NCBI RefSeq assembly: GCF_003334315.1
Contig: NZ_QOWR01000005.1
Direction: 5' to 3' (one strand)
From: Escherichia coli
GTDB lineage: Bacteria > Pseudomonadota > Gammaproteobacteria > Enterobacterales > Enterobacteriaceae
DNA length: 64,000 nt
Shown here: one piece after another, positions 3,018-57,597 of the stretch
Numbering within the stretch: the stretch's first letter is position 1
Layout of the letters: every line of letters begins with the position of its first letter
Notes under the pieces: generated by a model
The model's input: only the letters and a program-made list of their open reading frames with translations
Databases searched by the model: none
Told to the model about the DNA's origin: nothing
Program-made: the position numbers and the translations under genes

Positions 3018-3719
3018 CTGAACACACCGGCACAGCTCTCTTTGCCACTTTATCTTCCTGACGACGAAACCTTTGCAAGTTTCTGGCCGGGGGATAACTC
3101 CTCTTTACTGGCCGCGCTGCAAAACGTGCTGCGTCAGGAACATAGCGGTTACATCTATCTCTGGGCACGAGAAGGCGCGGGGCGCAGTCATCTGCTGCAC
3201 GCGGCTTGCGCGGAATTGTCGCAGCGTGGCGATGCGGTGGGCTATGTCCCGCTGGATAAACGCACCTGGTTTGTTCCGGAAGTGCTCGACGGTATGGAGC
3301 ATTTGTCGCTGGTCTGTATCGACAACATTGAGTGTATTGCAGGCGATGAGTTGTGGGAGATGGCGATTTTCGATCTCTACAATCGAATTCTGGAATCGGG
3401 CAAAACACGGTTGTTGATCACCGGCGATCGTCCACCGCGGCAGTTGAATCTGGGATTACCGGATCTCGCGTCGCGACTCGACTGGGGGCAGATCTACAAA
3501 TTGCAGCCACTTTCTGATGAAGATAAGTTGCAGGCGCTACAGTTACGCGCGCGTTTGCGTGGTTTTGAACTGCCGGAAGATGTGGGGCGTTTCTTGCTGA
3601 AGCGGCTCGACAGAGAAATGCGCACGCTATTTATGACGTTGGATCAGTTGGATCGTGCGTCGATTACCGCGCAACGTAAGCTGACCATTCCGTTTGTGAA
3701 AGAAATTCTGAAGTTGTAG
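3018..3719 (+). CDS. hda: DnaA-inactivating AAA+ protein Hda (RIDA), non-canonical CTG start
   Basis: ORF encodes ...[35 protein letters not shown]...; known Hda N-terminus MNTPAQ begins at CTG 3018-3020; longest ORF (GTG 2973) would add 15 residues. Confidence 0.85.
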
Positions 3720-6978: not shown

Positions 6979-7012
6979 CAGCCCGACGAACTGTTTCGCC
7001 GGGCTGATTTTT
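6979..7012. terminator. probable bidirectional intrinsic terminator for convergent perM and focB
   Basis: Stem cagcccgacgaa/ttcgccgggctg (11/12 bp) with 4-nt loop, T5 on plus strand (7008-7012); U-rich after stem on minus strand too. Confidence 0.65.
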
Positions 7013-7860
7013 CAGGATTCCTGACGTAAATAGATAGCCCGATAACACATACTCACCAGCACTGCACCGCCGATAATATTACCCAGCATCACCGGGAGCA
7101 GATTGGCGGTAATAAAATGGCTTACCGTCAGTGCCGGAAAATTGTCTGCGCTACTGTGCGCCAGTTGCCAGAAGGGGGGAGGGGCGAAATGGCGAATGGC
7201 AATGGCGAACGGAATCACAAACAAATTGGCGATACAGTGCTCAAAGCCACTGGCGACAAACAGGGTGATGGGCAAAATCATGGCGACGATTTTGTCGCAT
7301 AACGAACGCCCGCAATAACTCATCCACAGCGCCAGGCAAACCATCAGATTGCACATAATGCCGAGGCTGACAGATTCAGTAAATGTATGATGCATTTTGC
7401 CCTCGGCGCAGTGTAAAACCGCGACTCCCCACATCGCGTTTTCACTCATCACCAGCCCGGAAAACCAGATTAACAAACTGAAACAGGCAATACCTGCCAG
7501 ATTACCGCAGGCCACCAGAAGTGCGTTAATCAGCCAAGTTCGCCAACTAATAACGCCCCGACTTTTTGCCATCACCGTCATTACCGACGAGGTGAACAGG
7601 CTGGTGCCGCAAACCGCCAGCAAAATAAAGCCGAGTGTAAAGCAAAGGCCGCCCACCAGATGGGTTAATGCCTGTGAAGACGGGGCATCGGCGATAACGG
7701 AAAGGTAAAAAGTAAATCCGATCGCCATAAACACGCCAGCGGACATCGCCATTAAAAAGACCGACACTTTACTGCGGGCAATTTTATGGGCGGCAATCCG
7801 TTCAGCGATTGCCGCTTTTCTGGCGCTCAACTGCAAGTCGAAAGAGAGTTTGTTTCTCAT
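7012..7860 (-). CDS. focB: formate channel (FNT family), hyf-associated
   Basis: 282-codon ORF MRNKLSFDLQLSARKAAIAERIAAHKIARSKVSVFLMAMSAGVFMAIG... Confidence 0.95.
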   Translation of the reverse strand: MRNKLSFDLQLSARKAAIAERIAAHKIARSKVSVFLMAMSAGVFMAIGFTFYLSVIADAPSSQALTHLVGGLCFTLGFILLAVCGTSLFTSSVMTVMAKSRGVISWRTWLINALLVACGNLAGIACFSLLIWFSGLVMSENAMWGVAVLHCAEGKMHHTFTESVSLGIMCNLMVCLALWMSYCGRSLCDKIVAMILPITLFVASGFEHCIANLFVIPFAIAIRHFAPPPFWQLAHSSADNFPALTVSHFITANLLPVMLGNIIGGAVLVSMCYRAIYLRQES

Positions 7861-7881
7861 GCATACTCCTGCAAAAGCAGA

Positions 7882-9894
7882 TTACAACACCTCGCGAACC
7901 GAGATCCCCAGCCGCTGCATTCGTGACAGCAGCGTGGTGCGCTTCATCCCTAATCGCGTCGCTGCGCCACGGGGCCCGGCAACAATGCCATTGGTTTCTC
8001 GCAATACCTGAACAATGCGCTGACGTTCTTCTTCGTCATTCTCTGGCGTCGTCGGGTGCAGTAACTGCGCCATTGAACTGCGAAGCGCTGAATCTTCATT
8101 TAGCGTCGGCAGTAAACGGCTTTGTCGGACATTTAGATGTAAATTCAGACTGTTACCACGAGTCAGCAGTACCGCCCGCTCAATCACGTTTTCCAGCTCG
8201 CGCACGTTGCCCGGCCAATCCCACGACATCAACTGGCGTAGTGCCTCGGTCGGAATGGCGTCAATTGCGCGATTCATATGGCGCGCCATTTTTTGCGTGA
8301 AATGTTTTGCTAAAAGAGGGATATCTTCCGGACGGTCGCGTAGCGGCGGCAATTCCAGTGGGAAGACATTCAGGCGATAAAAGAGATCGCTGCGAAACTG
8401 GCGATCTTCAACCATTTGCCACAAATCACGGTTGGTGGCGGCAATGACTCTGACATTCACCGGGATCGTTCTACTCCCGCCGAGACGCTCAATCTCCCGC
8501 TCCTGCAATACGCGCAGCAGTTTAGGCTGAAGTTCTAACGGCAGATCGCCAATTTCATCGAGAAACAACGTGCCGCCATCGGCAATTTCAAAACGACCAC
8601 GATGGGTATTAATCGCACCAGTAAACGCCCCTTTGTCATGACCGAATAACTCACTTTCCAGAAGACTGGCGGGGATGGCAGCGCAGTTGATTTTGACCAG
8701 CGGCTTGTCGCGTCGCGGGCTAAGTTGATGGATCGCTCTGGCGATCACCTCTTTGCCAGTTCCGGTTTCACCACAAATCAACACCGTACTGTCGCTCTTC
8801 GCCACAATATCTACCTGCTGGAGCAGGTCTTCCATTGCCTGGCTTTGATAGATAATGTCACCGATGCCCAGATTCGAAAGGAGCTGCTCGCTAAGCTGGT
8901 GGTTTTCTTGCTGCAAACTTTCCTGCAAATCGGTCATGCTACGCCAGGCATCGGCATTGCCAACGGCAATAGCGATGCGATCGGCTATGTGTTGTAGTAG
9001 CTGGCAGTTTTCCTCACTAAAGAGAGTGGAAGAGGTATGCGCCAGCAACAATGCACCCGGTGTATGGTTGCCAAAGGTAAGCGGTATAAGGAGCGCAGAT
9101 TCGCAGCCGTTAGATGCAAGTAAGAGTAATAACGGGTCGCGTTGCCAGAGAAACAGATCATCTGCACGGTGCGTCAAGGTCGGTTGTCGGGTTTGTAGCG
9201 TTTGTGTCAGCAATACACTTTCGCCAGGCATACAGCGTGGCAGACACGCACAATGTGAGGCAGAAAGATCGCTGCACCACAGGCTGAACTTCTCGTTCTT
9301 TCGATGATCGCCCAGTACCATACTGACTGAAGCCAGACCGAAAAAATGATGGATCTCACGAGCGACGTCAGCGATCAGATCGTCGAGATCAAGATGTGAC
9401 AGCACTGCATTAGTAATATCAACCAGTACCCGATGATGATCGCGATCTTTCTCCAGCAAACGCAGCGCCACCTGCTGTTCTTCATCATTGAGCCATGATT
9501 GCAGAACCGGGGTGATTATCCGCGCCAGCCAGTTAAACAGTGTGCAATCCTGGGAAGTAAAACGACTGCCGTGGGTGCGAATAAAGCGTAGCTCCGCCAT
9601 TCCACTACTGCCGAGAAGGACGGCGTGACGCGAATAATCGACCATCTCGCCCTGATACTCTGTTGTTGCCGTCACATCGCTGCCATCATCATGGTAGCGG
9701 TAATAGAAGTTGCTTTTGAGAACATGCAGTTCAATAAGTTGTACCGGGCTGAACGGCGGCGGCAGCGGGATGAAGGCGCGTAATAAAGACGCCTTGCCGT
9801 GTTTCTGTGCTAACCGCTCCGCGAGCATTCCGTTTACCGCTTCAATTGTTATTCCTTGTGGCGGGGCAAACATCGCCTCGTCTGACATAGCCAT
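7882..9894 (-). CDS. hyfR: sigma-54-dependent transcriptional activator of hyf (GAF, AAA+ and HTH domains)
   Basis: [13 protein letters not shown]...; Walker [15 protein letters not shown] sigma-54 interaction motif, C-terminal HTH; start taken at second Met (670 aa), 9897 also possible. Confidence 0.93.
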
Positions 9895-9923
9895 CAACAG
9901 TCCTTATTAATGAGAAATCCTTC

Positions 9924-10337
9924 TCACGCAATTTTTCTGGCCATCAGATAGATGGCCGGTTCCTGCACAATTTCATCCAACAGATGAATGAATTGAATGC
10001 TACGCGCCTGCCACACAGACGTCGCGTCATCCGCCAGTGGCGCGAATGCCCGGGTCAACAGGGCGGTGTGGCTGGCGTCAATAACAATCTCACCAAAAGT
10101 CATCACCCCCAGCATCTTACGTCGGGCTTGCTCCTCTTCGACCAGTGCAAGCCAATCTTCGTATTCCGTCAGTGGGCAGCGGAAGGCGACATTCAGACAA
10201 TCAATCACGCCAACGTGATGGCCGATAGCTAGCGAGTAATACATTACCTGAGAGCTGTGTTCCGGCATCTCGTCGCTACTGGCGACAAACTTTTTTCGCA
10301 GCGTCCAGAAAACAATTTCCCCGCACTCTTCAGTCAT
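9924..10337 (-). CDS. hyfJ: hydrogenase-4 maturation/assembly protein (HycH-like)
   Basis: 137 codons from ATG 10337: [41 protein letters not shown]...; track ORF 10400 trimmed. Confidence 0.9.
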
Positions 10338-11088
10338 GTAACCCCCGGAGTACGCGAAAGAGTTGCTGAACGATACTATTGAGACGTGGATCGTCGGCAT
10401 CGCGCAACCAGGTGTTAACCCGATTTCCTGTAGGATCGTCGCTTAAATGGCGCAGGAGCCGATCGCAAATTTCTCGCCCCTGACGATAGCCCGCCAGCCG
10501 CCGCGCTTCTCGCTCAATGGCGATACGCTGTGATGGCGGGATCTGCGGCCACAACGGTTGCATAGTCACCCCGGTGGGATCGCGATAATCCACAGCGTGA
10601 ATCTTCTGTTGCAGCAAACCGAGCGCCACGGCGAAACCGTGAATGGTGGCGGCCGGTGTTGGCGGGCAGCCGGGGATCCAAACATCAATGGGGACAATGG
10701 TGTCGCTACCGCCCCAGACGCTGTAGAGATCGTGGAAAATACCGCCGCCGACACCGCACGCGCCGTAGGAAACACAAATTTTATGATCGGGGGCAGACTC
10801 ATACGCCCGAAGTGCAGGCATACGCATCGCCCGGGTGACTGCGCCAGTAAATAACAAAATATCGGCGTGACGCGGTGATGAAACAACCTTAATGCCAAAA
10901 CGTTCTGCGTCGAATACTGGTGTAATGGCAGCAAAAATTTCGATTTCACAGGCGTTGCAGCCGCCGCAATCGATGCGATAAACGTAAGCCGAGCGACGGA
11001 TATCCTGTAGCAAATGCCGCTTCATCTTTTGCGTTTGCTCGTCCAGCGTGATGGGCTGGCTGACATATTGTGTAAGCACTGGACTCAT
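10330..11088 (-). CDS. hyfI: hydrogenase-4 small subunit (NuoB-like, Fe-S)
   Basis: 252-codon ORF with [10 protein letters not shown] and GCPP motifs; overlaps hyfJ start by 8 nt. Confidence 0.94.
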
Positions 11089-11630
11089 AGCTGCTCCTTA
11101 GCCACCAGCAGTACATCTGTATCGTCGTTGATCAGCGTCGCGCGTTGTTTGCATTCCGGGCAGACGCTCGCTTGCGCCCACAACATTTCGCGGTTTTGTG
11201 GCGCATTTTGTTGCTGTGCTAACAATTCAGCAGCCAGTGCGATGGTTTTTTGCGGGGCAAACGGGCGTTCGCAACGGCTGCAACGTTGTAGATGGAACGT
11301 CGCGCGGGTATAGAGATCGGCTTTATTGGTGACGGTCAGTTCAAAGTTATTGGTAAGCTGGATGGCTCTGGTCGGGCACACTTCTTCACAACGTCCGCAG
11401 TAAATACAACGCCCCAGATAGAGCTGCCAGGTGCGCGAATTTTGCTGGTCGTCGGTCTGGATAGTCAGCGCATTTGCCGGACAAGCACAGGCGCAGGCAC
11501 CGCAGGCAATACATTGGCTGGGCATCAGGTCCGGTTTTCCGCGAAAGCCAGGGCTGACCTCCAGTGGCGCGAAGGGATATTTCACCGTCGCGGTTCCGGC
11601 GCGCATAATAGTTTTCAGTAACTTCAGCAT
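11085..11630 (-). CDS. hyfH: hydrogenase-4 ferredoxin-like subunit (two 4Fe-4S motifs)
   Basis: 181-codon ORF with [12 protein letters not shown] and [12 protein letters not shown] cysteine clusters; ATGA overlap with hyfI. Confidence 0.94.
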
Positions 11631-11639
11631 CTTCTGTCC

Positions 11640-13307
11640 TTACTTCAGCGGCGAACGGTTACGATCAATGCCGTAGCGTTCGATCTCTTTATACGGCACG
11701 GTTTTTGACTGGCGCTTGCGCACATCTACCAGCGTCACACGGTCGGTACAGGAGTAGCAGGGATCAAGGCTACCGATAATCAGCGGTGCGTCAGAAACGG
11801 TATTGCCGCGCAGCATGTAACGCAACACCGGCCAGTTGGCGTAGGTGGCGGCACGGCAGCGCCAGCGGAACAATTTTTGGTTATCACCGAGCATGCTCCA
11901 GTGCACGTCTTCACCGCGTGGCGCTTCAACAAAGCCCAGCGCGAATGCGTGAGGTTTATAGCTAAAGCCTTCGGTCAGCAGTGGGGTATCCGGCATGTTG
12001 TCGAGGGCAAATTCCAGCATTGCCAGCGAATCAAACGTCTCTTTGACACGGACCATCACGCGGGAGAAAACATCGCCGCCGGTAAAGGTAAACAGTGTTT
12101 TTGGAATATTGCCGTAGTCGGCGTAGGGGTGATCAAAGCGCAAATCACGGGCGATTTGTCGGTCGAGAATGCCAATGCCCTGAGTGCGTTGTTCCATATT
12201 CGGCGTAGCAAGCAGCATCTCTACCAGCTCCGACACGTCGGCGCGCATCTCGCGCACCAGTTTCAGCGTTTGCAGACGTTGCTCTTTGAGAATATCGCGG
12301 CGAACACCACCAATCAGATTCAGACCGTAGGTTTTACGCGACCCGATCAGCAATTCCGCCATCGTCATCGACTTTTCCCGCACGCGGAAAAATTGCATAA
12401 AGCCGGTATCAAAACCAACGAAATGGCAGGAGAGGCCAAGGTTAAGCAAATGACTGTGTAGCCGTTCGACTTCCAGCAGAATCGAGCGAATAGTATGTGC
12501 TCGTTGCGGCACCTCAATCCCCAGTGCATTTTCAACCGAATTGGTATAGGCCACACTGTGGGCAAAACCGCAAATCCCACACACGCGGTCCGATAAGAAG
12601 GTCACTTCGTTGTAGCCCATCCGCGTTTCTGCCAGTTTCTCCATGCCGCGATGGACATAAAACAGGCGGTAATCAGCATCGACAATTTGCTCGCCATCCA
12701 CAAACAAGCGGAAGTGACCCGGTTCATCGGAGGTGATATGCAGCGGGCCGACAGAGATCACCCGCGCATCGCTGTTGCCCTCATTGATAAACGGATACGT
12801 TTCGGAATCAGTCGTCGGTTCAGGGCGCAGTCGATAATCCATCGCATCTTTGCGCAGCGGATGCATATCTTCCGGCCAGTCATCGGGCAACACCAGGCGA
12901 CGCTGATCCGGCAGGCCAACCGGAATCAGCCCGTACATATCGCGAATTTCTCGCTCGCCCCAGACCGCGGCAGGGACGCGCGGTGTGACTGACGGAAACT
13001 CCCGACTGTCGGCATCGACCAGCGCCTTCACCACAATCCAGCATTTTTCGGCCCCTTCCATTGAAAGGGCATAATAAACCGCGTAATGACCGTTAAGTGT
13101 CCGCTCGTCGTTGCCAAACAGGACCGGAAGCCAGCCATCATGTTGATAATAAAGATACTGTACAACGTCAGGCAGCAGATTGATTTTCACCGTAATGGTG
13201 ACCTGTTCAGGCGTTTGTCGCTCTTCATCCAGCACCGCGCCGGGGAACTGCGTTTTCAGGGCGGCGAGAATCGCTTCGCCACGATTTGACGATGAATTAA
13301 CGTTCAC
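11640..13307 (-). CDS. hyfG: hydrogenase-4 large catalytic subunit (NiFe, NuoCD-like)
   Basis: 555 codons from GTG 13307: (M)[24 protein letters not shown]...; C-terminal DPCYSCTDR nickel-binding motif; track ORF 13352 trimmed. Confidence 0.92.
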
Positions 13308-14877
13308 TGTGTTTCTCCGAAACAGATGCGGTGCCTGAAGGCAAAAAATCATGCCAGGTGCTACGTTGTGCAGGCAGATCGTGCGTCCCTGAGAGGACTA
13401 TAGTGGAAGCGCCCGCCAGGATCCTGATGACAGGTTGTGGAATATGCGTTCCCATCGCCAGCATCATGACCAGCAGAATCACCATTGGCGAGGTGGTCAA
13501 CCAGCCGAGATCACCCCGGTTAACGGCCTGCGGCGGTTTCGCCATTAACACCCGCGCAGCCATCCGTACCAGGCCCGCCAGCACCAGCGTTAACAGCAAT
13601 AACAGCAGGACGATAATCAGCAGGTGATTACGTGCCAGTCCGGCGGTAATGGTCATAAATTCGCTAAGAAAAATGTTGAAGGGCGGCATCCCTGCCAGCG
13701 CCAGCGCACCGCCGCCAAACAGCACGGCGGTAAATGGCATGATTTTGAGCATCCCACAGACGACGTTGAGATCGCGCGTGCCGTACTTGAGCAGTACATT
13801 GCCGGAACCGCAGAACAGCAGCGTTTTTGCCAGACTGTGGTTTAAGATGTGCAGCAGCGCGGCAAAAATTCCCAGCGGCCCGCCAATGCCTAGCTCCACC
13901 GCGACCAGCCCCATGTTCTCCACGCTGGAGTACGCCAGCAGACGCTTAATGTCCCGCTGTACCAGAATGAAAAATGCCGCCACGGCAACCGACAACATGC
14001 CGAAGATGAGCAACAACCGGTTGGGGAAATCGCTGCCGATGGCTTGGCAAATAATGATGTAATAGCGAATCAGCACCAACAGCGCGCAGTTCAGCACTAC
14101 GGCGGAGAGCAGGGCGCTGACCGGACTCGGCGCTTCACTGTGAGCATCCGGCAGCCAGGCGTGCATGGGAAATAGCCCGGTTTTGGTACCAAAGTCAATT
14201 AGCAAAAACACAAAGGCCAACAGCATTAATGTTGGGTCAAGCAAGGACGATTGCTTAAGAACCTCGCTCCAGAATATCGCCATTTCTGCCTGCGGCATAA
14301 CGCTGGCGGTGTTGGCGTATACCAGCACGGTACCGAACAGACCAAAAGCGACACCAACAGTACAAATAATGATGTACTTCCATGCAGCTTCCAGCGATGA
14401 ACGCTGACCGTAAATGCCTACCAGAAACGCCGAGCTTAAGGTGGTGGCTTCGATCGCCGCCCACATCACAATCAGGTTATTGCTGGTAACAACCAGCAGC
14501 ATGGTGAACAAAAACAGATGGAAGAAACCGTAGTAATCGCACAGCGTAACGGGTGAAAGCTCGCCGTGTGCCACTTCATGACGCATGTAGCCAATCGAGT
14601 AAATACCGGTGAGAAAGCCAATCACACCAAGAATGGCGAGGAACAAACCGCCCAGACCATCAATATGAAGCCACAGTCCCGCAGCGAATATTTCTCCTGC
14701 ATCAGCGGCAGTTTGGACCACCCAGAGTGCCAGAATCAGCAGCAGTGTGATCCCTAAGCTATGTAATACGGTCACCGTGCGAGTCGCAGAAAGTCTCCGT
14801 TTCCGGCAGGCAAAACAGAGCAGCGAAAAAAGCAGCGGCGTGAGCAGGAGTAAAGCGAACATCACAGAATAACTCAT
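13297..14877 (-). CDS. hyfF: hydrogenase-4 membrane subunit (NuoL/M/N antiporter-like)
   Basis: 526-codon [33 protein letters not shown]..., polytopic. Confidence 0.94.
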
Positions 14878-14881
14878 CTCA

Positions 14882-15532
14882 TTATCCCTTCAGCGCGGTC
14901 AAGTTGTTCACGTCCAGCGTGCCGTGGGTACGCCATATTTTTCTTGCCAGTAACACCATCACAATGACGGCGAAGATGGCGTCGGTAGCGATACCTATTT
15001 CCACCAGTTCCGGTGCTCGCCAGGCAAGAAGCGCCAGCACCAGATGGGAGCCGTTTTCCATCAGGCAGTAACCAAAAATTTGCCGCAGGATATTGCGCTG
15101 GCTGACAATGCACAGCAGGCCAAGCAGAAAATGACCTAACGCTACCGCCAGCGCCGGTTTCAGCCCGGTAGCCATCGGTAGCTTCACGGGCTGAACGACA
15201 AATGCGCAAAGCAGGACAATTAACGCCGCGAGCAGTGCCATCATTGCCGGACCGAATAACGCTTTTTCCGGGATGTTCTGGGGAATATTTCGTGCAGCGT
15301 AAGTCATGATTAACGGTACCAGCAGCACTTTGGTGATAAAGGCGCTGGCGGACCAGATCAGCAGTTGCTCTGCGGCGAACAGGCACGAGAGGGTGGCGAA
15401 AATAGACACCAGCACCAGTGACTGGCAGGCGTAAAATCCGCATGACAGGCGATAGCTTTTGACGCTAATCACAAACAGTGATGTCAGCATCATCAGTCCC
15501 GCCAGATTATTTACGATCATAGAACCGGTCAT
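14882..15532 (-). CDS. hyfE: hydrogenase-4 membrane subunit
   Basis: 216-codon [33 protein letters not shown]... Confidence 0.93.
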
Positions 15533-15543
15533 TCATCATCTCC

Positions 15544-16982
15544 TTACTGCAACCAGGTCGCGGCGATTACGCTGGAAATCAGCGACATCACAATCAGTAC
15601 AATCAACACCAGGCGCATTGACCCTGGCAGCGGTGCGGCATCGGCGACGGCCTCGCTCGGTTTGCCAGGCACGACGCGACCAAACCAGCGAATAAACCAG
15701 GCGAAACTGGCGACCGATTCAATCATCAGCAGAATCATGGCGGGCAGCAGGATCCAGTACTCCACTGACAACGCAAAACCGGCAGCAAACAGCGGGAATT
15801 TACTGAAGAAGCCGTTGAACGGCGGCACGCCGGTAATTGCCAGCGCTGCCACGCAGAAACCCACGCCAGGCAACGGCAGGGTGTGCAATACGCCACGCAG
15901 ACGCGGCAACAAGCGCGTGCCGCAGCTGTAACTCAGCGCACCTGCTACAAGGAAAAACAGGCTTTTAGCGAACGCGTGGTTGACGATGTAGGCGATGCTA
16001 CCCTCCAGCGCCAGCCGCGAGCCGAAGATGGAGAGCGACAAGCCGAAGAACATCCAGCCAAGTTGAGTGATGGTCGACCAGGCCAGCAACCGCTTCATAT
16101 CCTGCTGTGGCAAATACATCAGAAATCCATAAAGAATGGTGACCAGGGCCATGACCATGCCAACGCCGCCAATCACATGCGGGATATTGCCGCCGTCGAT
16201 AATGGCGCGGGCAAAAATGTAAACGCCCACTTTCACCATCGATGCGGCGTGGAGATAGGCGCTGATCGGTGTTGGCGCTTCCATTGCGTCCGGTAGCCAC
16301 GCTTGCATCGGTAGCTGGGCCGATTTCCCCCACGCGGCAAACAGGATGCCGCCATAAACCAGATAACGTGCGTCGCCGTGTAACTCGCTCATCGCGCTAA
16401 GCGCAAACGTTCCGGTCTGCAAAAACAGCGTGGCGGCGGCAAGATACAACCCCAACGAGCCGATATGAGTGATAAGTAACGCTTTTAGTGCTGAACGCTG
16501 CGCTTTATCGCTCTGGTAATAACTGATCAACGCCCAGGAGCAGCCGCCCGTAATTTCAAAAAACAACAACTGACCGAGCAGCGTCGAGGAGAGTACCAGT
16601 CCCGCCATCGCGCCGATAAACACCAGCAAAAATGCGTAATAACGATTCGTGCCGTTATGCGGGTGTTCGCGATTTTTATCCGTCAGATAACCCGTGGAGT
16701 AGATCGTGACCAGCAAACCGAGAAACACCACCACAAACAGAATCAGCGTACTCACGCGATCAATGACCAGGCCAAACAATGCCACATCCCCCACGTTGAC
16801 CAACGTCAACGTGACGGCAACTTTATCGGCCTGATAAAACGCGGAGATCAGCGACAACATGCACAGCGTGGTCAGTGCGGCGAACAAAACCCCCATTCGG
16901 CGGCCCGACGTTGTGGCGAAAACGAAACGACCAGTGCGCCGATAAAAGGCAGCATTAACGTCGTCAGAGCAAGATTTTCCAT
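15544..16982 (-). pseudogene. hyfD: hydrogenase-4 membrane subunit HyfD, interrupted by a frameshift in a G5/C5 run (16890-16894)
   Basis: ATG 16982 gives MENLALTTLMLPFIGALVVSFSPQRRAAEWG then stops at 16874-16872; the 450-codon body (15544-16896) is in the adjacent frame; joining with one extra G gives 479 aa. Confidence 0.8.
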
Positions 16983-16998
16983 ATTCCGTCAGTGCTCC

Positions 16999-17945
16999 TT
17001 ACAGACCGGTTAACCAGAAGACCCATGCAAGCGCAGCAAGGCTGAAGCCAAGCCAGGTCACATGGTGAATGAGTAAAAAACGCCCGCATGCCAGCGTGTT
17101 TTCTGCGATTGAAGCCAGTACAAAAATCAGCAAAACCTTGAGCAGCGTAACGACAAGTGAAGTCAGCAGGCAGGTGAGAGAAAGTTCTTGCGCGCGCCCA
17201 AAGGGCAGAAACAGGGCCACAAACAGTGCTGCCATCACGACCTGTTTCAGCCCCAGCCCCCATTTCGCCAACGCCAGCCCGGCACCGGAATATTCGGTCA
17301 GCGGGCCTTCCTGTAATTCCTGTTCTGCTTCAGCAACATCAAAGGGAATTTTTCCCATCTCTATGAAGCAGGCAAAACCACAGGCCAGTAACGCCAGTAC
17401 GGTGGTTAGCGGCGAGTTCCAGCCCATCGCCAGCGTATTGCTGATCATCTCGATATGCGTGGAATCCGCTATCAGCGCCAATACCAGCAGTGAGAGAATG
17501 AGCATGGGTTCGACCAGAATGCCGAGCGTCAACTCGCGACTGGCACCGACTCCCGCAAACGGGCTTCCGGTATCCAGCCCTGAAAGAGCAAAGAAAAAAC
17601 GAAACAGGGCAAGAAGATAGATAAGGGTGATCAGATCGCCGCCGCCCGCAAAAGGGAAACGGTAATAAACAGTGGTAGGGCCATCGCCAGCACCAGCATG
17701 CTGCTGATTAATACCCACGGCATCAGGCGGAACATCAGACCTGAAGATATAGGCGCAACTTCCTGGCGTTTAAACAGTTTGTGGATATCGCGATAATCCT
17801 GCCAGATCTCCGGCCCGCGGCGGGAGTGCATACGCGCGCGTATCTGCCGGGAAATACCCGTAAAAAGTGGGGTTAGCATCAGCAGAATCACGGCCTGTGC
17901 TAACGCAAAAATGACCAGATATCCGTCGCAAAGAGTTTGTCTCAT
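16999..17945 (-). pseudogene. hyfC: hydrogenase-4 membrane subunit HyfC (NuoH-like), interrupted by a frameshift in a G3/C3 run (17654-17656)
   Basis: ATG 17945 gives MRQTLCDGYLVIFALAQ...PLFITVS then LLRAAAI-stop (17631); remainder (...PFAGGGDLITLIYLL... to 16999) is in the adjacent frame; joined length 315 aa. Confidence 0.8.
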
Positions 17946-17955
17946 GGTGATTTCC

Positions 17956-19974
17956 TTAGACGGCAATAGCGATTAGCAGCACAACCAGTGCGGCGACCAC
18001 ATACAGGCAATAGAGACGAAAGTCGCCGCTTTGCAGATGCTGTATTTCTTTGGCCAGCCGTTGGGTGGCGCTCACGATGGGGCGGATCACCCGCTCATCC
18101 CAGAAGGGTTCTGTGCTCTGAGCCCTGGCGGTGACGTGCGCAAGACCTTTATTTAGCCTCAGCGTAGGGTCGAGCTGTTGTCGTAGACGAAATAGCGCAG
18201 AAAAGACCACACGCAGCGGCTGCATCACGCCATTGCCTGACGGGGCCATCGCATTTTCCCAGCTGTAGCCGCATGCCCAGGCATCTCCTGTGCGACGAAA
18301 CGCTGCGCGGCGCGAACGACACCACAGCCAGTAAAGGCCAGGCAGCAAAGGCATCGCCAGTAGTAACAGCAACAGTAATGAAGGAGTGACCCGTGTATGA
18401 AACGTGCCGGGTACAAGTGCTATTCCGCTGGCGACAGTGACGGGAGGGGTATCGGTAAACGCATGGGCAATATGCATTATCTTCGGTGCCAGCCAACTGG
18501 CACTAAGCGCAATTAATACGCAGAGTGCCGCGAGCAGTAGCATGGCGACGATCATCGTATTTGGCACTTCCTGTGCCTCTTCAGCGTGTGTACTGCGCGG
18601 CGCACCACAGAAAGTAATACCGTACATTTTTACGAAGCACATTACTGCCAGCCCACCAGTGACTGCCAGCATTACCATAGCAATAGGACCCGCAAGTTGT
18701 AGCGCTACGGCTTCCACACGACTTAGTGAGAACAGCGACTGCCAGGTGTACCATTCGCTGATAAAATCATTCAGCGGAGGAAGGGCTGATATCGCCAGGC
18801 AACCAATCAGGCATGCTGCGGCTGTCCACGGCATCCGTTTCGCCAGTGCCCCCATTTTTTCCATGTCGTGGGTATGCAAACGCGAAATAATCGCGCCCGC
18901 GCCGAGAAATAGCAGCCCTTTGAACAGCGCATGGTTGAGCAGATGAAACAGTGCGCCGAGCAGTCCAACCACGGTGAGCAGCGGGTCGTGCAGTGACAGA
19001 CCGACCATCGCCACACCGACCGCCAGCAAAATAATGCCGACGTTTTCGACGGTACTCCAGGCCAGTAGCCGTTTGATATCCTGTTCCGCCAGCGCATACA
19101 GCACGCCCAGGAGCGCGGAGATTGCGCCGATCGCCATCACCAGAATGCCCCACCACAGCGGCAAACCCGTTTGCGCCAGCAGATCCATCGCCACTTTCAG
19201 GATGCCGAAAATACCGATTTTGACCATTACGCCAGACATCAACGCTGAAGCGTGCGATGGTGCGGCAGGGTGAGCGCGCGGCAACCAGCTGTGCAACGGC
19301 ATCATCCCGGCTTTCGCGCCAAAACCGAAAAAGGCCAGCAGGAACACCGCCGACGCCAGCCCCGGAGAAAGTGAAAGCGTGCGGAAACTGGCAAAATCGA
19401 GGCTGCCGCTTTCGCGCCCCATCAGCAAGAAGGCGATCATTATCAGCACCGATCCGGCGTGGGCGATAAAAAAGTAGAGCATGCCAGCGTTGATCGACGT
19501 TTTATCCTGCCTGGCAATGACCAGAAACCAGGAAGACAGCGACATCATTTCAAACAGCACGATGAACCAAAAAGCGTTGTCCATCACCAGCAGGGCAACC
19601 ATCGATGCGATGAAAAGATTCATAAAGAAGCCCATCGCCGCCGCGCCTTTGCCCTCGTATTCGCGCATATAAGTCAATGAATAGAGCGAACAAACCACCA
19701 CCAGCAAGGAGATAACCAGCACCATAAATGCCGAGAGGCTATCCATTCGCAGGGTTAAATCGGCAAAGTCAAAAGGGGTGGCAAAATGGGCGACTAAAGT
19801 TACACCAGCATGTAATTGCGTAATTCCGCTGATGATGCCAATCACGCCGCCCACCAGCGATGTGATGCTGGAAAGCTTAATAGCCAGTCTGTCCAGACCG
19901 AGTAAAAACAGCGAAGCCAGACTGGCAAACAGATAGAGGATCAGCGACCAGGTTAATAATTGCAGGGCATCCAT
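17956..19974 (-). CDS. hyfB: hydrogenase-4 membrane subunit (NuoL/MrpA antiporter-like)
   Basis: 672-codon ORF MDALQLLTWSLILYLFASLASLFLLGLDRL... Confidence 0.95.
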   Translation of the reverse strand: MDALQLLTWSLILYLFASLASLFLLGLDRLAIKLSSITSLVGGVIGIISGITQLHAGVTLVAHFATPFDFADLTLRMDSLSAFMVLVISLLVVVCSLYSLTYMREYEGKGAAAMGFFMNLFIASMVALLVMDNAFWFIVLFEMMSLSSWFLVIARQDKTSINAGMLYFFIAHAGSVLIMIAFLLMGRESGSLDFASFRTLSLSPGLASAVFLLAFFGFGAKAGMMPLHSWLPRAHPAAPSHASALMSGVMVKIGIFGILKVAMDLLAQTGLPLWWGILVMAIGAISALLGVLYALAEQDIKRLLAWSTVENVGIILLAVGVAMVGLSLHDPLLTVVGLLGALFHLLNHALFKGLLFLGAGAIISRLHTHDMEKMGALAKRMPWTAAACLIGCLAISALPPLNDFISEWYTWQSLFSLSRVEAVALQLAGPIAMVMLAVTGGLAVMCFVKMYGITFCGAPRSTHAEEAQEVPNTMIVAMLLLAALCVLIALSASWLAPKIMHIAHAFTDTPPVTVASGIALVPGTFHTRVTPSLLLLLLLAMPLLPGLYWLWCRSRRAAFRRTGDAWACGYSWENAMAPSGNGVMQPLRVVFSALFRLRQQLDPTLRLNKGLAHVTARAQSTEPFWDERVIRPIVSATQRLAKEIQHLQSGDFRLYCLYVVAALVVLLIAIAV

Positions 19975-20591
19975 TAGCGTTGCTCCTGAGTGAGGGAAAG
20001 GGGATCCTCCCCGCCATTGGCAAACCAGCTTGCGGCAAGGCGCTGTTTTTCTTTCATCTGACGTTGCAGGCTATCGTCGGTGATCAGCCGTAACGCCTGA
20101 TTCGGGCAAGCGCGAACGCAGGCCGGACCTTCTGGCAAGAAATCACACAGGTCGCATTTCACCGCGACGGTCTGGACACCCGGTTCCCAGCGCAGCAACG
20201 CATGTTGGGGCAGCACGTTTTCTTCGCCGTTTTTGAGTGAGCCTTCAGCCTGAAAAACATATTGCGCATGGGCATTCACCGGACGGCTTCCTGAAGCGCT
20301 GATTGCGCCAAATGGGCAGACCACGGCGCAAAGCTTGCAGCCAATACAGAGGCTTTCGTTGAGTTGGATCGCATCATCCCTCTGAGAGATGGCATTGACC
20401 GGGCAGACCTGCAGGCAAGGGGCTTCCTCACAGTGATGACACACGACAGGGGCAGTGATTGTTGACGTCTTCGCCAGGGCCAGGCGCGGGTGTTGCTGTA
20501 AACCTTGCGTTTTATGCACGTCCGAACAGGCAGCGAGACAGGTATTACATCCTGTACACCACAGTGGTTCGGCCACCACAAAGCGGTTCAT
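19974..20591 (-). CDS. hyfA: hydrogenase-4 4Fe-4S ferredoxin subunit
   Basis: 205 codons from ATG 20591: MNRFVVAEPLWCTGCNTCLAACSDVH...; four CxxCxxCxxxCP-type clusters; upstream ATG 20630 lies upstream of the predicted sigma-54 start site. Confidence 0.92.
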   Translation of the reverse strand: MNRFVVAEPLWCTGCNTCLAACSDVHKTQGLQQHPRLALAKTSTITAPVVCHHCEEAPCLQVCPVNAISQRDDAIQLNESLCIGCKLCAVVCPFGAISASGSRPVNAHAQYVFQAEGSLKNGEENVLPQHALLRWEPGVQTVAVKCDLCDFLPEGPACVRACPNQALRLITDDSLQRQMKEKQRLAASWFANGGEDPLSLTQEQR

Positions 20592-30563: not shown

Positions 30564-30920
30564 TTATGAGAATAAATACTCATTTAAGGGTGAAAACATT
30601 TTGCCTGCAAATGATTATCAGGAAATATAACATTATCGAAGTATTCAAATTAACAACTATTAAATAATATTAAACATTTTTAACGTAAACATTAAGAATA
30701 TTCATCTTGTTATCTGTCTGTATTTTAACCAGAATTAAATCAGTATTAGATGCCGTATGAATATCTCGAAATGTTGCTGTGTATCACATACAAATCATCA
30801 CCGCAGGACCATAGTATTTACATAAGATTTGTCCCCCGGAGGTAGTCATCGCAGCAATCGAGTAAATTAGCTTCACCACGGTATATTGTTTCCGTAGAAT
30901 ACCCATAATTAGAGGTTGTT

Positions 30921-40117: not shown

Positions 40118-40179
40118 GCATCCGGCAATCAGCATCCGGCAATCAGCATCCGGCAATCAGCATCCGGCGATCACCATCA
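40118..40179. repeat. 14-bp tandem repeat (about 4.4 copies), REP-derived
   Basis: gcatccggcaatca x3, then gcatccggcgatca, then partial ccatca; last copy overlaps the tktB stop codon (40177-40179). Confidence 0.85.
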
Positions 40180-43438: not shown

Positions 43439-45718
43439 ATGGATGACCAGTTAAAACAAAGTGCACTTGATTTCCATGAATTTCCAGTTCCAGGGAAAAT
43501 CCAGGTTTCTCCAACCAAGCCTCTGGCAACGCAGCGCGATCTGGCGCTGGCCTACTCACCAGGCGTTGCCGCACCTTGTCTTGAAATCGAAAAAGACCCG
43601 TTAAAAGCCTACAAATATACCGCGCGCGGTAACCTGGTGGCGGTGATCTCTAACGGTACGGCGGTGCTGGGGTTAGGCAACATTGGCGCGCTGGCAGGCA
43701 AACCGGTGATGGAAGGCAAGGGCGTTCTGTTTAAGAAATTTGCCGGGATTGATGTATTTGACATTGAAGTTGACGAACTCGACCCGGACAAATTTATTGA
43801 AGTCGTCGCTGCGCTCGAACCGACCTTCGGCGGAATCAACCTCGAAGACATTAAAGCGCCAGAATGTTTCTATATTGAACAGAAACTGCGCGAGCGGATG
43901 AATATTCCGGTATTCCACGACGATCAGCACGGCACGGCAATTATCAGCACAGCCGCCATCCTCAACGGCTTGCGCGTGGTGGAGAAAAACATCTCTGACG
44001 TGCGGATGGTGGTTTCCGGCGCGGGCGCCGCAGCAATCGCCTGTATGAACCTGCTGGTAGCGCTGGGTCTGCAAAAACATAACATCGTGGTTTGCGATTC
44101 AAAAGGCGTTATCTATCAGGGCCGTGAGCCAAACATGGCGGAAACCAAAGCCGCATATGCGGTGGTGGATGACGGCAAACGAACCCTCGATGATGTGATT
44201 GAAGGCGCGGATATTTTCCTCGGCTGTTCCGGCCCGAAAGTGCTGACCCAGGAAATGGTGAAGAAAATGGCTCGTGCGCCAATGATCCTGGCGCTGGCGA
44301 ACCCGGAACCGGAAATTCTGCCGCCGCTGGCGAAAGAAGTGCGTCCGGATGCCATCATCTGTACCGGCCGTTCCGACTACCCGAACCAGGTGAACAACGT
44401 CCTTTGCTTCCCGTTCATCTTCCGTGGCGCGCTGGACGTTGGCGCAACCGCCATCAACGAAGAGATGAAACTGGCGGCGGTACGCGCGATTGCAGAACTG
44501 GCCCATGCGGAACAGAGCGAAGTGGTGGCTTCAGCGTATGGCGATCAGGATCTGAGCTTTGGTCCGGAATACATCATTCCAAAACCGTTTGATCCGCGCT
44601 TGATCGTTAAGATCGCTCCTGCGGTCGCGAAAGCGGCGATGGAGTCGGGCGTGGCGACGCGTCCGATTGCTGATTTCGACGTCTACATCGACAAGCTGAC
44701 TGAGTTCGTTTACAAAACCAACCTGTTTATGAAGCCGATTTTCTCCCAGGCTCGCAAAGCGCCGAAGCGCGTAGTTCTGCCGGAAGGGGAAGAGGCGCGC
44801 GTTCTGCATGCCACTCAGGAACTGGTAACGCTGGGACTGGCGAAACCGATCCTTATCGGTCGTCCGAACGTGATCGAAATGCGCATTCAGAAACTGGGCT
44901 TGCAGATCAAAGCGGGCGTTGATTTTGAGATCGTCAATAACGAATCCGATCCGCGCTTTAAAGAGTACTGGACCGAATACTTCCAGATCATGAAGCGTCG
45001 TGGTGTCACTCAGGAACAGGCGCAGCGTGCGCTGATCAGTAACCCGACAGTGATCGGCGCGATCATGGTTCAGCGTGGGGAAGCCGATGCAATGATCTGC
45101 GGTACGGTGGGCGATTATCATGAACATTTTAGCGTGGTGAAAAATGTCTTTGGTTATCGCGATGGCGTTCACACCGCAGGTGCAATGAACGCGCTGCTGC
45201 TGCCGAGTGGTAACACCTTTATTGCCGATACCTACGTCAATGACGAACCAGACGCAGAAGAGCTGGCGGAGATCACCTTGATGGCGGCAGAAACTGTCCG
45301 TCGTTTCGGTATTGAACCGCGCGTTGCTCTGTTGTCGCACTCCAACTTTGGTTCTTCTGACTGCCCGTCGTCGAGCAAAATGCGTCAGGCGCTGGAGCTG
45401 GTCAGGGAACGTGCGCCAGAACTGATGATTGATGGTGAAATGCACGGCGATGCAGCGCTGGTGGAAGCGATTCGCAACGACCGTATGCCGGACAGCCCTT
45501 TGAAAGGTTCTGCCAATATTCTGGTGATGCCGAACATGGAAGCTGCCCGCATTAGTTACAACTTACTGCGCGTTTCCAGCTCGGAAGGTGTGACTGTCGG
45601 TCCGGTGCTGATGGGCGTGGCGAAACCGGTTCACGTGTTAACGCCGATCGCATCGGTACGTCGTATCGTCAACATGGTAGCGCTGGCCGTGGTTGAAGCG
45701 CAAACCCAACCGCTGTAA
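43439..45718 (+). CDS. maeB: NADP-dependent malic enzyme (malic enzyme fused to PTA-like domain)
   Basis: 759-codon [50 protein letters not shown]... Confidence 0.97.
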
Positions 45719-53597: not shown

Positions 53598-54824
53598 ATG
53601 GGAATTAACGAAATCATCATGTACATCATGATGTTCTTTATGCTGATAGCTGCCGTAGACAGGATCCTGTCGCAGTTCGGCGGTTCTGCTCGTTTCCTCG
53701 GTAAGTTCGGTAAAAGTATCGAAGGATCAGGCGGTCAGTTCGAAGAAGGCTTTATGGCAATGGGCGCACTGGGCCTGGCGATGGTCGGTATGACCGCGCT
53801 GGCACCGGTACTGGCTCACGTTCTCGGGCCGGTAATTATTCCGGTTTACGAAATGCTCGGCGCTAACCCATCGATGTTCGCCGGAACACTGCTGGCGTGC
53901 GATATGGGCGGCTTCTTCCTCGCCAAAGAGCTGGCGGGCGGCGACGTAGCCGCGTGGCTATACTCTGGGTTAATTCTCGGGTCGATGATGGGGCCAACGA
54001 TTGTGTTTTCCATTCCGGTGGCGCTCGGCATTATCGAACCTTCTGACCGTCGTTATCTGGCGCTCGGCGTGCTGGCGGGCATTGTGACCATTCCGATTGG
54101 TTGTATCGCTGGTGGTCTGGTTGCTATGTACTCCGGTGTGCAGATCAACGGCCAGCCGGTGGAATTCACTTTCGCCCTGATCCTGATGAACATGATCCCG
54201 GTGATCATTGTTGCGATTCTGGTGGCGCTGGGGCTGAAATTCATCCCGGAAAAAATGATCAACGGCTTCCAGATCTTCGCCAAATTCCTCGTTGCATTGA
54301 TCACCCTCGGTCTTGCCGCTGCGGTAGTGAAATTCCTGCTTGGCTGGGAACTGATCCCCGGTCTGGATCCTATCTTTATGGCCCCTGGCGATAAACCCGG
54401 TAAGGTGATGCGCGCCATTGAAGTTATCGGTTCTATCTCCTGCGTTCTGTTAGGGGCGTATCCGATGGTGCTGCTGCTGACTCGCTGGTTTGAAAAACCG
54501 CTGATGAGCGTCGGTAAAGTACTGAATATGAACAACATCGCGGCAGCCGGCATGGTGGCAACGCTTGCCAACAACATCCCGATGTTCGGCATGATGAAGC
54601 AGATGGATACCCGCGGCAAAGTCATCAACTGCGCCTTCGCCGTTTCCGCTGCTTTCGCCCTGGGCGACCACTTAGGCTTCGCCGCTGCCAACATGAACGC
54701 CATGATCTTCCCGATGATTGTCGGCAAGTTGATCGGCGGCGTAACGGCGATTGGCGTGGCGATGATGCTGGTGCCAAAAGAAGACGCGACCGCGACTAAA
54801 ACCGAAGCGGAGGCACAATCGTGA
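53598..54824 (+). CDS. eutH: ethanolamine permease/facilitator EutH
   Basis: 408-codon ORF MGINEIIMYIMMFFMLIAAVDRILSQFGGSARFLGKFGKSIEG..., polytopic. Confidence 0.95.
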   Translation: MGINEIIMYIMMFFMLIAAVDRILSQFGGSARFLGKFGKSIEGSGGQFEEGFMAMGALGLAMVGMTALAPVLAHVLGPVIIPVYEMLGANPSMFAGTLLACDMGGFFLAKELAGGDVAAWLYSGLILGSMMGPTIVFSIPVALGIIEPSDRRYLALGVLAGIVTIPIGCIAGGLVAMYSGVQINGQPVEFTFALILMNMIPVIIVAILVALGLKFIPEKMINGFQIFAKFLVALITLGLAAAVVKFLLGWELIPGLDPIFMAPGDKPGKVMRAIEVIGSISCVLLGAYPMVLLLTRWFEKPLMSVGKVLNMNNIAAAGMVATLANNIPMFGMMKQMDTRGKVINCAFAVSAAFALGDHLGFAAANMNAMIFPMIVGKLIGGVTAIGVAMMLVPKEDATATKTEAEAQS

Positions 54825-56224
54825 ACACTCGCCAGCTATTGAGCGTCGGTATCGATATCGGCACCACCACCACCCAGGTGATTTTCTCCCGGCTGGAGCT
54901 GGTTAACCGTGCGGCGGTGTCGCAGGTGCCGCGCTACGAATTCATTAAACGCGAAATTAGCTGGCAAAGTCCGGTGTTCTTTACCCCTGTCGATAAACAG
55001 GGCGGTTTAAAAGAAGCGGAACTGAAAACCTTAATACTCGAGCAATATCATGCTGCGGGTATTGAGCCGGAAAGCGTTGATTCTGGTGCCATCATCATCA
55101 CCGGTGAAAGCGCGAAAACCCGCAATGCTCGCCCGGCGGTGATGGCGCTCTCTCAGTCGCTGGGCGATTTTGTCGTTGCCAGCGCCGGGCCGCACCTCGA
55201 ATCCGTGATCGCCGGTCACGGAGCCGGGGCACAAACCCTTTCTGAACAACGGCTGTGTCGGGTACTGAATATCGACATCGGCGGTGGCACCGCGAACTAC
55301 GCCCTGTTCGATGCCGGAAAAATCAGCGGCACTGCCTGCCTCAACGTCGGTGGTCGCCTGCTGGAAACCGACAGCCACGGGCGCGTGGTTTACGCTCATA
55401 AACCGGGGCAGATGATTGTGGATGAGTGCTTCGGTGCAGGCACTGACGCCCGTTCGCTGACCGGCGCGCAGCTGGTGCAGGTTACCCGGCGGATGGCGGC
55501 GCTGATTGTCGAAGTGATTGACGGAACGCTTTCGCCGCTCGCGCAGGCATTGATGCAAACCGGTTTGCTGCCCGCAGGTGTTACGCCCGAAATCATTACG
55601 CTTTCTGGAGGCGTGGGCGAATGTTATCGCCACCAGCCCGCCGACCCGTTCTGTTTTGCCGATATTGGCCCACTTCTGGCAACGGCGCTGCATGACCATC
55701 CGCGCCTGCGTGAGATGAATGTGCAGTTTCTGGCGCAAACCGTACGCGCCACGGTGATTGGCGCGGGTGCACATACCCTTTCGCTCTCTGGCAGCACAAT
55801 CTGGCTGGAGGGCGTACAACTGCCGCTGCGCAATTTGCCGGTGGCGATCCCGATTGATGAAACGGATCTGGTGAGTGCCTGGCAACAGGCGCTGCTTCAG
55901 CTGGATCTTGATCCCAAAACTGACGCGTACGTGCTGGCGCTTCCCGCCTCGCTGCCTGTGCGTTACGCCGCGGTACTGACGGTCATCAACGCGCTGGTCG
56001 ATTTCGTCGCGCGTTTTCCGAATCCGCATCCCCTGCTGGTGGTGGCCGGGCAGGACTTTGGTAAAGCTCTGGGCATGTTGTTGCGCCCACAGCTACAACA
56101 ACTCCCGTTGGCAGTCATTGACGAAGTGATTGTCCGCGCGGGGGACTATATCGACATTGGTACGCCTCTTTTTGGCGGATCGGTTGTGCCGGTGACGGTG
56201 AAATCACTCGCATTTCCTTCCTGA
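54821..56224 (+). CDS. eutA: ethanolamine ammonia-lyase reactivase EutA
   Basis: 467-codon ORF MNTRQLLSVGIDIGTTTTQVIFSRLELVNRAAVSQVPRYEFIKREISW...; GTGA overlap with eutH. Confidence 0.95.
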   Translation: MNTRQLLSVGIDIGTTTTQVIFSRLELVNRAAVSQVPRYEFIKREISWQSPVFFTPVDKQGGLKEAELKTLILEQYHAAGIEPESVDSGAIIITGESAKTRNARPAVMALSQSLGDFVVASAGPHLESVIAGHGAGAQTLSEQRLCRVLNIDIGGGTANYALFDAGKISGTACLNVGGRLLETDSHGRVVYAHKPGQMIVDECFGAGTDARSLTGAQLVQVTRRMAALIVEVIDGTLSPLAQALMQTGLLPAGVTPEIITLSGGVGECYRHQPADPFCFADIGPLLATALHDHPRLREMNVQFLAQTVRATVIGAGAHTLSLSGSTIWLEGVQLPLRNLPVAIPIDETDLVSAWQQALLQLDLDPKTDAYVLALPASLPVRYAAVLTVINALVDFVARFPNPHPLLVVAGQDFGKALGMLLRPQLQQLPLAVIDEVIVRAGDYIDIGTPLFGGSVVPVTVKSLAFPS

Positions 56225-56235
56225 GGGAACGACTT

Positions 56236-57597
56236 ATGAAACTAAAGACCACATTGTTCGGCAATGTATATCAGTTTAAGGATGTAAAAGAGGTGCTGGC
56301 TAAAGCCAACGAACTGCGTTCGGGGGATGTGCTGGCGGGCGTTGCAGCGGCAAGCTCACAGGAGCGCGTGGCGGCAAAGCAGGTGTTGTCGGAAATGACC
56401 GTAGCGGACATCCGCAATAATCCGGTGATTGCCTATGAAGATGACTGCGTGACGCGGCTGATTCAGGACGACGTTAACGAAACGGCCTACAACCAGATTA
56501 AAAACTGGAGCATCAGCGAACTGCGTGAGTATGTGCTGAGCGATGAAACCAGCGTGGACGACATTGCCTTTACCCGCAAAGGGCTGACCTCGGAAGTGGT
56601 CGCGGCGGTAGCGAAGATTTGCTCCAACGCGGACCTGATCTACGGCGCGAAGAAAATGCCGGTAATCAAAAAGGCCAATACCACCATCGGTATTCCGGGC
56701 ACCTTTAGCGCCCGTTTGCAGCCGAACGATACCCGTGACGACGTGCAAAGTATCGCTGCGCAAATCTATGAAGGGCTTTCCTTTGGGGTGGGCGATGCGG
56801 TGATCGGCGTTAACCCGGTAACTGACGACGTGGAAAACTTAAGCCGCGTGCTGGATACCATTTATGGCGTGATCGACAAATTCAACATCCCAACTCAGGG
56901 CTGCGTACTGGCGCACGTCACCACCCAGATCGAAGCGATTCGTCGCGGCGCGCCTGGCGGACTGATTTTCCAGAGTATCTGTGGCAGCGAAAAAGGGCTG
57001 AAAGAGTTTGGCGTGGAACTGGCGATGCTCGACGAAGCGCGCGCAGTGGGCGCAGAGTTCAATCGTATCGCCGGGGAAAACTGCCTCTACTTCGAAACCG
57101 GACAAGGCTCTGCGCTATCCGCTGGCGCTAACTTCGGCGCTGACCAGGTGACGATGGAAGCACGTAACTATGGGCTGGCGCGTCATTACGATCCGTTTAT
57201 CGTCAACACCGTGGTCGGCTTTATTGGGCCGGAGTATCTCTACAACGACCGCCAGATTATCCGTGCTGGCTTAGAAGATCACTTTATGGGCAAGCTGAGC
57301 GGCATCTCTATGGGCTGTGACTGCTGCTACACCAACCACGCTGACGCTGACCAGAACCTCAACGAAAACCTGATGATCCTGCTCGCCACCGCAGGCTGCA
57401 ACTACATCATGGGGATGCCGCTGGGTGATGACATCATGCTCAACTACCAGACCACCGCATTCCACGATACCGCCACTGTGCGTCAGTTACTCAACCTGCG
57501 TCCGTCACCGGAGTTTGAACGCTGGCTGGAAAGCATGGGCATTATGGCAAACGGTCGCCTGACCAAACGGGCGGGCGATCCGTCACTGTTCTTCTGA
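56236..57597 (+). CDS. eutB: ethanolamine ammonia-lyase large subunit
   Basis: 453-codon ORF MKLKTTLFGNVYQFKDVKEVLAKANELRSGDVLAGVAAASSQERVAAKQ...; starts 12 nt after eutA stop. Confidence 0.96.
   Translation: MKLKTTLFGNVYQFKDVKEVLAKANELRSGDVLAGVAAASSQERVAAKQVLSEMTVADIRNNPVIAYEDDCVTRLIQDDVNETAYNQIKNWSISELREYVLSDETSVDDIAFTRKGLTSEVVAAVAKICSNADLIYGAKKMPVIKKANTTIGIPGTFSARLQPNDTRDDVQSIAAQIYEGLSFGVGDAVIGVNPVTDDVENLSRVLDTIYGVIDKFNIPTQGCVLAHVTTQIEAIRRGAPGGLIFQSICGSEKGLKEFGVELAMLDEARAVGAEFNRIAGENCLYFETGQGSALSAGANFGADQVTMEARNYGLARHYDPFIVNTVVGFIGPEYLYNDRQIIRAGLEDHFMGKLSGISMGCDCCYTNHADADQNLNENLMILLATAGCNYIMGMPLGDDIMLNYQTTAFHDTATVRQLLNLRPSPEFERWLESMGIMANGRLTKRAGDPSLFF

Follow-up and report, generated by a model that had tools for sequence, protein, structure and literature searches.

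Two adjacent genes of the hydrogenase-4 (hyf) operon, hyfC and hyfD, are disrupted in the stretch of the Escherichia coli chromosome analysed here (64 kb, hereafter the window). We put the probability at about 93 % that both are genuine, vertically inherited pseudogenes, each carrying a 1-bp slippage-type deletion in an operon that is dispensable. Neither lesion is new, as both are annotated by PGAP and are common to hundreds of E. coli strains, BL21, ATCC 8739 and widely used laboratory strains among them. The deletion of one base in a short mononucleotide run is the usual signature of replication slippage, and each gene would have lost its base by this route, hyfD through a change from G6 to G5 and hyfC through a change from C4 to C3.

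The hyf operon was found on the minus strand of the window, running from hyfA (19974-20591) to focB (7012-7860). Within it, hyfC (16999-17945, minus strand), encoding a NuoH/HycD-like membrane subunit, and hyfD (15544-16982, minus strand), encoding an antiporter-like membrane subunit of hydrogenase 4, were recognized as pseudogenes from alignment with K-12, the PGAP annotation of strain W5-6 and translation. The W5-6 annotation and translation also indicated that the upstream genes hyfA and hyfB (17956-20591, minus strand) both have intact ORFs, as do the downstream genes hyfE, hyfF, hyfG, hyfH, hyfI, hyfJ, hyfR and focB (7012-15532, minus strand). To place these findings in context, 58 complete CDS from the W5-6 annotation were mapped onto the window and translated, and hyfC and hyfD were the only two of the 58 that were broken. 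Two broken genes among 58 would be adjacent by chance with a probability of 57/1653, or approximately 3 %, so that the clustering is unlikely to be a chance result and fits the functional linkage of the two products in one enzyme complex. Elsewhere in the window, hda (3018-3719) has an unusual CTG start codon, the same as in the W5-6 annotation. The genes eutA and eutB (54821-57597) are directly adjacent and the eut operon is uninterrupted in the window; in K-12 the eutA-eutB junction is presumably occupied by the CPZ-55 prophage.

The hyfC-hyfD region of K-12 MG1655 (2.6 kb) was used as the alignment reference. The window differed from it at about 45 substituted positions and by just two gaps, each of 1 bp, at approximately 98 % nucleotide identity, which establishes one deletion in each gene. 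This agrees with the initial annotation, which had described adjacent single-base shortfalls in hyfC and hyfD, and the span that it had marked (15544-17945) corresponds exactly to hyfD plus hyfC. Its statement that some 70 other genes are intact was correct as to intactness (56 of 56 other CDS checked), the number being closer to 60. It had also placed the lesions in G/C runs, and both do lie in mononucleotide runs, that in hyfC being a shortening from only four bases to three rather than a run of five or more.

In hyfC, which lies between hyfB and hyfD in the orthologous position, the coding strand reads CCGTTTCCCCTTTTG in K-12 and CCGTTTCCCTTTTG in the window, reducing C4 to C3 at codon 97 (17654-17656; G3 on the plus strand). 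Over the 948 nt of the intact gene there are 17 SNPs and this one gap, leaving 947 nt. The original reading frame now ends after 104 codons, of which 96 are native and eight are out of frame before a TGA (17631-17945, minus strand), and an intact 315-codon hyfC ORF is absent from the translated window. The out-of-frame remnant of residues ~97-315 (16999-17655, minus strand) still matches NuoH-family profiles at positions 125-325.

In hyfD, the coding strand changes from GAATGGGGGGTTTT in K-12 to GAATGGGGGTTTT in the window, reducing G6 to G5 at codon 31 (16890-16894; C5 on the plus strand) and the gene from 1440 to 1439 nt. The frame opened by the native ATG (16872-16982, minus strand) ends after 36 codons, 31 native and five out of frame, followed by TGA. 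The deletion also brings an internal ATG (16896-16894) into frame with HyfD residues 31-479, creating a 450-codon ORF (15544-16896, minus strand). When searched against NF005097, the NCBIfam equivalog for hydrogenase 4 subunit D (curated cut-off 430 bits), this ORF scored 774.5 bits over profile positions 31-480, and the 36-codon stub matched positions 1-32 in a different frame from the remainder. No single ORF in the window hyfD spans the whole profile (~479 aa), and the division of the profile over two frames identifies the gene as a pseudogene of that family. A 450-aa HyfD product is widely reported by gene callers (P0003, 4,213 member sequences).

The distribution of both alleles was determined in 5,426 complete E. 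coli genomes using 41-mers centred on each lesion, the 28-base seed of megablast ensuring that only deletion carriers were matched. As the initial annotation had suggested, a survey of other isolates was informative: the identical hyfD G5 deletion was present in 998 of the 5,426 genomes and the identical hyfC C3 deletion in 306. A concatenated query carrying both alleles matched 1,304 places in a union of 1,004 genomes, which indicates that 300 genomes have both deletions. The hyf region itself was recovered with a 2.7-kb query in 4,298 of the 5,426 genomes, with no match to this query in the other 1,128, and the G5 allele accordingly accounts for approximately 23 % of hyf-bearing genomes. Dozens of complete genomes matched the 2.7-kb query from end to end, ungapped and at 100.0 % identity as printed; this figure is rounded, and W5-6, the first of these matches, differs from the window by one SNP over the query. 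Short alignments confirmed the hyfC deletion in BLR, ATCC 8739, PD007 and JNE23-001 and the hyfD deletion in BLR, ATCC 8739 and 120899, and PGAP labels both genes 'frameshifted' in W5-6, BLR(DE3), ATCC 8739 and PD007. PD007, whose genome is of K-12 size, was considered as a possible K-12 strain in which the lesions had arisen a second time; this was rejected, as it has both lesions together with the B-type haplotype. The window additionally has a synonymous G at hyfC codon 92, a sub-haplotype present in 105 genomes, and its haplotype is common to about 105-107 complete genomes. The best matches to the window over 24.5 kb differ at about 10 positions, which places the isolate outside the set of complete genomes.

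These counts bear directly on whether the lesions are real. Single-base shortfalls in mononucleotide runs are a typical error class, so that the two missing bases could in principle be long-read homopolymer miscalls in genes that are really intact, and an extra A private to W5-6 maeB could itself be an error of this kind. Against this, exactly these alleles were found in 306 independent complete genomes for hyfC and in 998 for hyfD, several separate assemblies of B strains among them, and the alleles are associated with particular SNPs in their flanks. None of the 56 other CDS is disrupted. A comparison of the whole 64 kb with the independent, near-identical W5-6 assembly identified 19 SNPs and three indels, two of them intergenic (5 and 14 bp) and the third being the extra A in W5-6 maeB. 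Despite the presence of 40 G/C runs of at least five bases in the window, the count against a reference that the initial annotation had proposed, no G/C-run difference from W5-6 was found over the 64 kb. Allele sharing and the clean comparison together exclude assembly error, the first of the two explanations offered by the initial annotation, and we give it practically no weight. More generally, paired homopolymer frameshifts are not necessarily assembly errors, and population data settle the question quickly.

Relative to W5-6, the closest of the complete genomes, there is at 30911 a 5-bp length difference upstream of ypfM, and at 40118 a repeat-like 14-bp length difference between ypfG and tkt; the first is intergenic, as is the second, and neither has a coding consequence. 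The maeB gene (43439-45718) is intact in the window, and the extra A of W5-6 (window position 45420), for which PGAP calls the gene 'frameshifted', belongs to W5-6 and not to the window, being a mutation private to that strain or a homopolymer error in its assembly.

The sharing of identical alleles establishes that both deletions are heritable, and their distribution also indicates the order in which they arose. HyfD of Escherichia fergusonii, Salmonella and Klebsiella is 479 aa long, with residues 1-30 aligning with those of K-12, and this retention of the N-terminus in outgroups identifies G6 as the ancestral state and G5 as derived. The hyfC deletion is nested within the hyfD deletion, with 300 of the 306 hyfC-deletion genomes also carrying the hyfD deletion, and G5 occurs with an intact hyfC in strains 120899, M6, NCTC9082 and ZYB39. 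The simplest history is therefore one in which the hyfD deletion came first and the hyfC deletion second, and most likely the hyfC lesion arose later within the hyfD-deleted group. The nesting is imperfect, as six genomes with the hyfC deletion lack the one in hyfD. One of these, JNE23-001, is most likely a recombinant: alongside the hyfC deletion it has G6 and a 407-aa version of hyfD, its hyfB is frameshifted and its hyfF contains a nonsense codon. 

Under this history, the first deletion would have removed the distal antiporter-like module, and the second would have followed almost wholly within hyfD-deleted genomes. Hydrogenase 4 would then most probably be dead in the window lineage, with ten other genes of the operon still open; the intactness of these ten is a counterpoint to the decay reading, in that decay has not gone far in this lineage. 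The data support the second explanation of the initial annotation, real decay of the slippage type in an operon that can be dispensed with. What requires revision is its picture of fresh lesions or lesions tied to silence in the laboratory, as the alleles are old and inherited and are found both in B strains and in natural isolates of human, animal and water origin. Likewise, the two lesions are better regarded as sequential than as a pair, given the overlap of 300 in 306, and both genes were already PGAP pseudogenes.

Decay of the operon across the species extends well beyond the two deletions of the window. Among strains with G5, 120899 has an additional 208-bp deletion in hyfD; in M6, NCTC9082 and ZYB39, hyfD has lost a further single base at nt 434 and hyfB is frameshifted; and in BLR(DE3) the last sense codon, 479, has changed from CAG to TAG on top of the G-run deletion. 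In the complete genomes, the 208-bp deletion junction was found in 860 and the nt-434 deletion in 363. A fourth lesion, a 216-bp in-frame deletion between two GCGCGATG direct repeats, was found in at least 237 complete genomes; it removes residues 125-196 and leaves a 407-aa protein that PGAP calls as normal. By comparison with JNE23-001 (L009), where the site lies at 1553-1597, the equivalent segment of the window is ~16395-16610. At least one of these four hyfD lesions (G5, 208-bp, nt-434, 216-bp) is present in 1,871 genomes, approximately 44 % of those that are hyf-bearing. The hyfB gene is frameshifted in L012, L013 and L014 (M6, NCTC9082 and ZYB39) and in L009, which also has an internal stop in hyfF, and these lesions in other lineages indicate that, in the species as a whole, decay of the operon reaches beyond hyfC and hyfD.

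A 2026 pangenome study lists hyfD among the most often pseudogenized metabolic genes and locates the diversity of the FHL gene cluster to HyfD (PMC13322260). Apart from this paper and background papers, our literature search found no dedicated study of a hyfD or hydrogenase 4 frameshift. Substitutions in hyfD among the sampled genomes were five nonsynonymous and four synonymous for private changes and none and 15, respectively, for shared changes, these being small counts on mosaic SNPs. The contrast between private and shared changes is suggestive of recent relaxation. The almost entirely synonymous shared polymorphism could reflect continued constraint, whereas the mosaic pattern of SNPs suggests recombination with intact alleles instead.

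The coexistence of G5 and G6 at appreciable frequency in the species raises the question of whether the hyfD G run is a contingency locus, that is, a reversible phase-variation switch for the composition of the hydrogenase-4 membrane arm. However, the tract is short, with five to six bases (three or four in hyfC), and run lengths other than G5 and G6 were not seen. Moreover, 994 of the 998 hyfD-deletion genomes are identical over the flanking 61-mer, which points to one origin of G5 on one local haplotype; frequent switching would not leave an allele tied to a single haplotype in this way. Irreversible secondary lesions have also built up on G5 alleles. A phase-variation switch is therefore very improbable.

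A similarly slight likelihood attaches to recoding, in which programmed -1 ribosomal frameshifting or transcriptional slippage would restore both frames and full-length HyfC and HyfD would be made. The other genes of the operon are still intact, and in hyfD the wild-type peptide E-W-G-V-L would be recovered exactly if tRNA-Gly slipped by -1 on the G5 run. No comparable re-pairing option exists at the hyfC site, however, and a scan for X_XXY_YYZ heptamers in frame 0 before the premature stop returned zero in either gene. The 80 nt of RNA downstream folded no better than shuffled sequences (z = +1.23 for hyfD and -0.63 for hyfC), so that the earlier observation of neither a slippery heptamer nor a downstream structure was borne out. 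Orthologues from other species are encoded by a single ORF, as are the genes of most E. coli, and the two-frame layout is not conserved. The absence of a heptamer, the ordinary folding and the conserved single ORF lead us to reject programmed frameshifting. In addition, the carriers of the hyfD deletion gather further disruptive lesions. Runs of three and five bases also fall short of the lengths at which transcriptional slippage is known to occur.

The hyfD lesion on its own might nevertheless be tolerated or even favoured, either because a 450-aa restart form of HyfD is made or because a leaner, FHL-1-like enzyme results, in which case only the hyfC lesion would be true decay. We consider this unlikely, although several observations are compatible with it. 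The internal ATG at 16896 opens the 450-codon ORF and the stop of the stub lies just 24 nt beyond it, so that a truncated HyfD comprising residues 31-479 may be produced from this in-frame start. The hyfD lesions are of at least four independent kinds and reach high frequency, together affecting 1,871 genomes, and the hyfC deletion is far rarer. In Pectobacterium atrosepticum, deletion of hyfDEF from FHL-2 left hydrogen production intact or slightly higher, with the hydrogen output and the HyfG level both slightly raised, and deletion of hyfB-F reduced hydrogen production to about 5 % (PMC7384014); the former result indicates that loss of HyfD is tolerable.

Several features nonetheless count against a functional restart. 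No convincing Shine-Dalgarno sequence was recognized upstream of the internal ATG in the window, and the restart would lose residues 1-30 and with them the first predicted transmembrane segment, which is kept in outgroups. The 450-codon ORF is itself destroyed in many hyfD-deletion genomes, and this frequent secondary destruction argues against selection for either the restart or a -1 slip. Since hyfC is broken too, the window lineage could in any case gain nothing from a slimmer enzyme. In the same spirit, hyfD as a preferred and possibly selected target of inactivation, with G5 still yielding some HyfD by restart or -1 slip, is a doubtful proposition; if it were true, the enzyme would have been lost for good in this lineage only with the later hyfC lesion. 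The repeated targeting of hyfD across the species, whether neutral or selected, is a mildly interesting aspect of the data.

HyfC is the NuoH/HycD-type subunit through which the membrane and catalytic arms are connected. Judging from the literature on related enzymes, its loss should abolish the complex and leave no membrane arm. The long untranslated stretches after both stops also make polarity on the downstream genes hyfE-focB likely from the sequence. No complete hydrogenase 4 is predicted for the window isolate, as for ATCC 8739, the B strains and some 300 further sequenced E. coli, and any phenotype ascribed to hydrogenase 4, like its reaction in metabolic models, should be disabled for this lineage. 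The hyf operon has been reported as specifically absent from phylogroup B2 (PMC2617782), and this absence, together with the 1,128 of 5,426 genomes without a match, indicates that the operon is dispensable in nature. Overall, the population data depict a modular, dispensable enzyme that is decaying step by step: among hyf-bearing genomes, 23 % have hyfD G5, within which the hyfC deletion is nested, and 44 % have a hyfD lesion of some kind.

Compared with known systems, the closest likeness is to the PGAP-annotated hyfC and hyfD pseudogenes of BLR(DE3), BL21, ATCC 8739 and W5-6, which have the same two deletions at the same positions and in which the rest of the hyf operon is intact, as in the window. 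The coordinates of hyfC and hyfD in W5-6 equal those of the window. The B strains and ATCC 8739 differ from the window in having A rather than G at hyfC codon 92, and BLR differs in the Q479* change in hyfD. Relative to the other common hyfD alleles of E. coli (216-bp, 208-bp and nt-434), in which the same gene is repeatedly disrupted, often in combination with G5, the window has the G-run deletion only and none of these three. The hydrogenase 4 of K-12 (hyfABCDEFGHIJR-focB), a 'silent' system of the FHL-2 type, has the same gene order and content as the window, but K-12 has C4 and G6, with a 315-aa HyfC and a 479-aa HyfD in place of the 104- and 36-codon stubs. The hyfDEF and hyfB-F deletions in Pectobacterium remove the same subunits as are lost in the window, with loss of HyfD being tolerated and loss of the HyfB/C core costing most of the activity. 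That system differs in being another species with clean engineered deletions as opposed to probably polar frameshifts.
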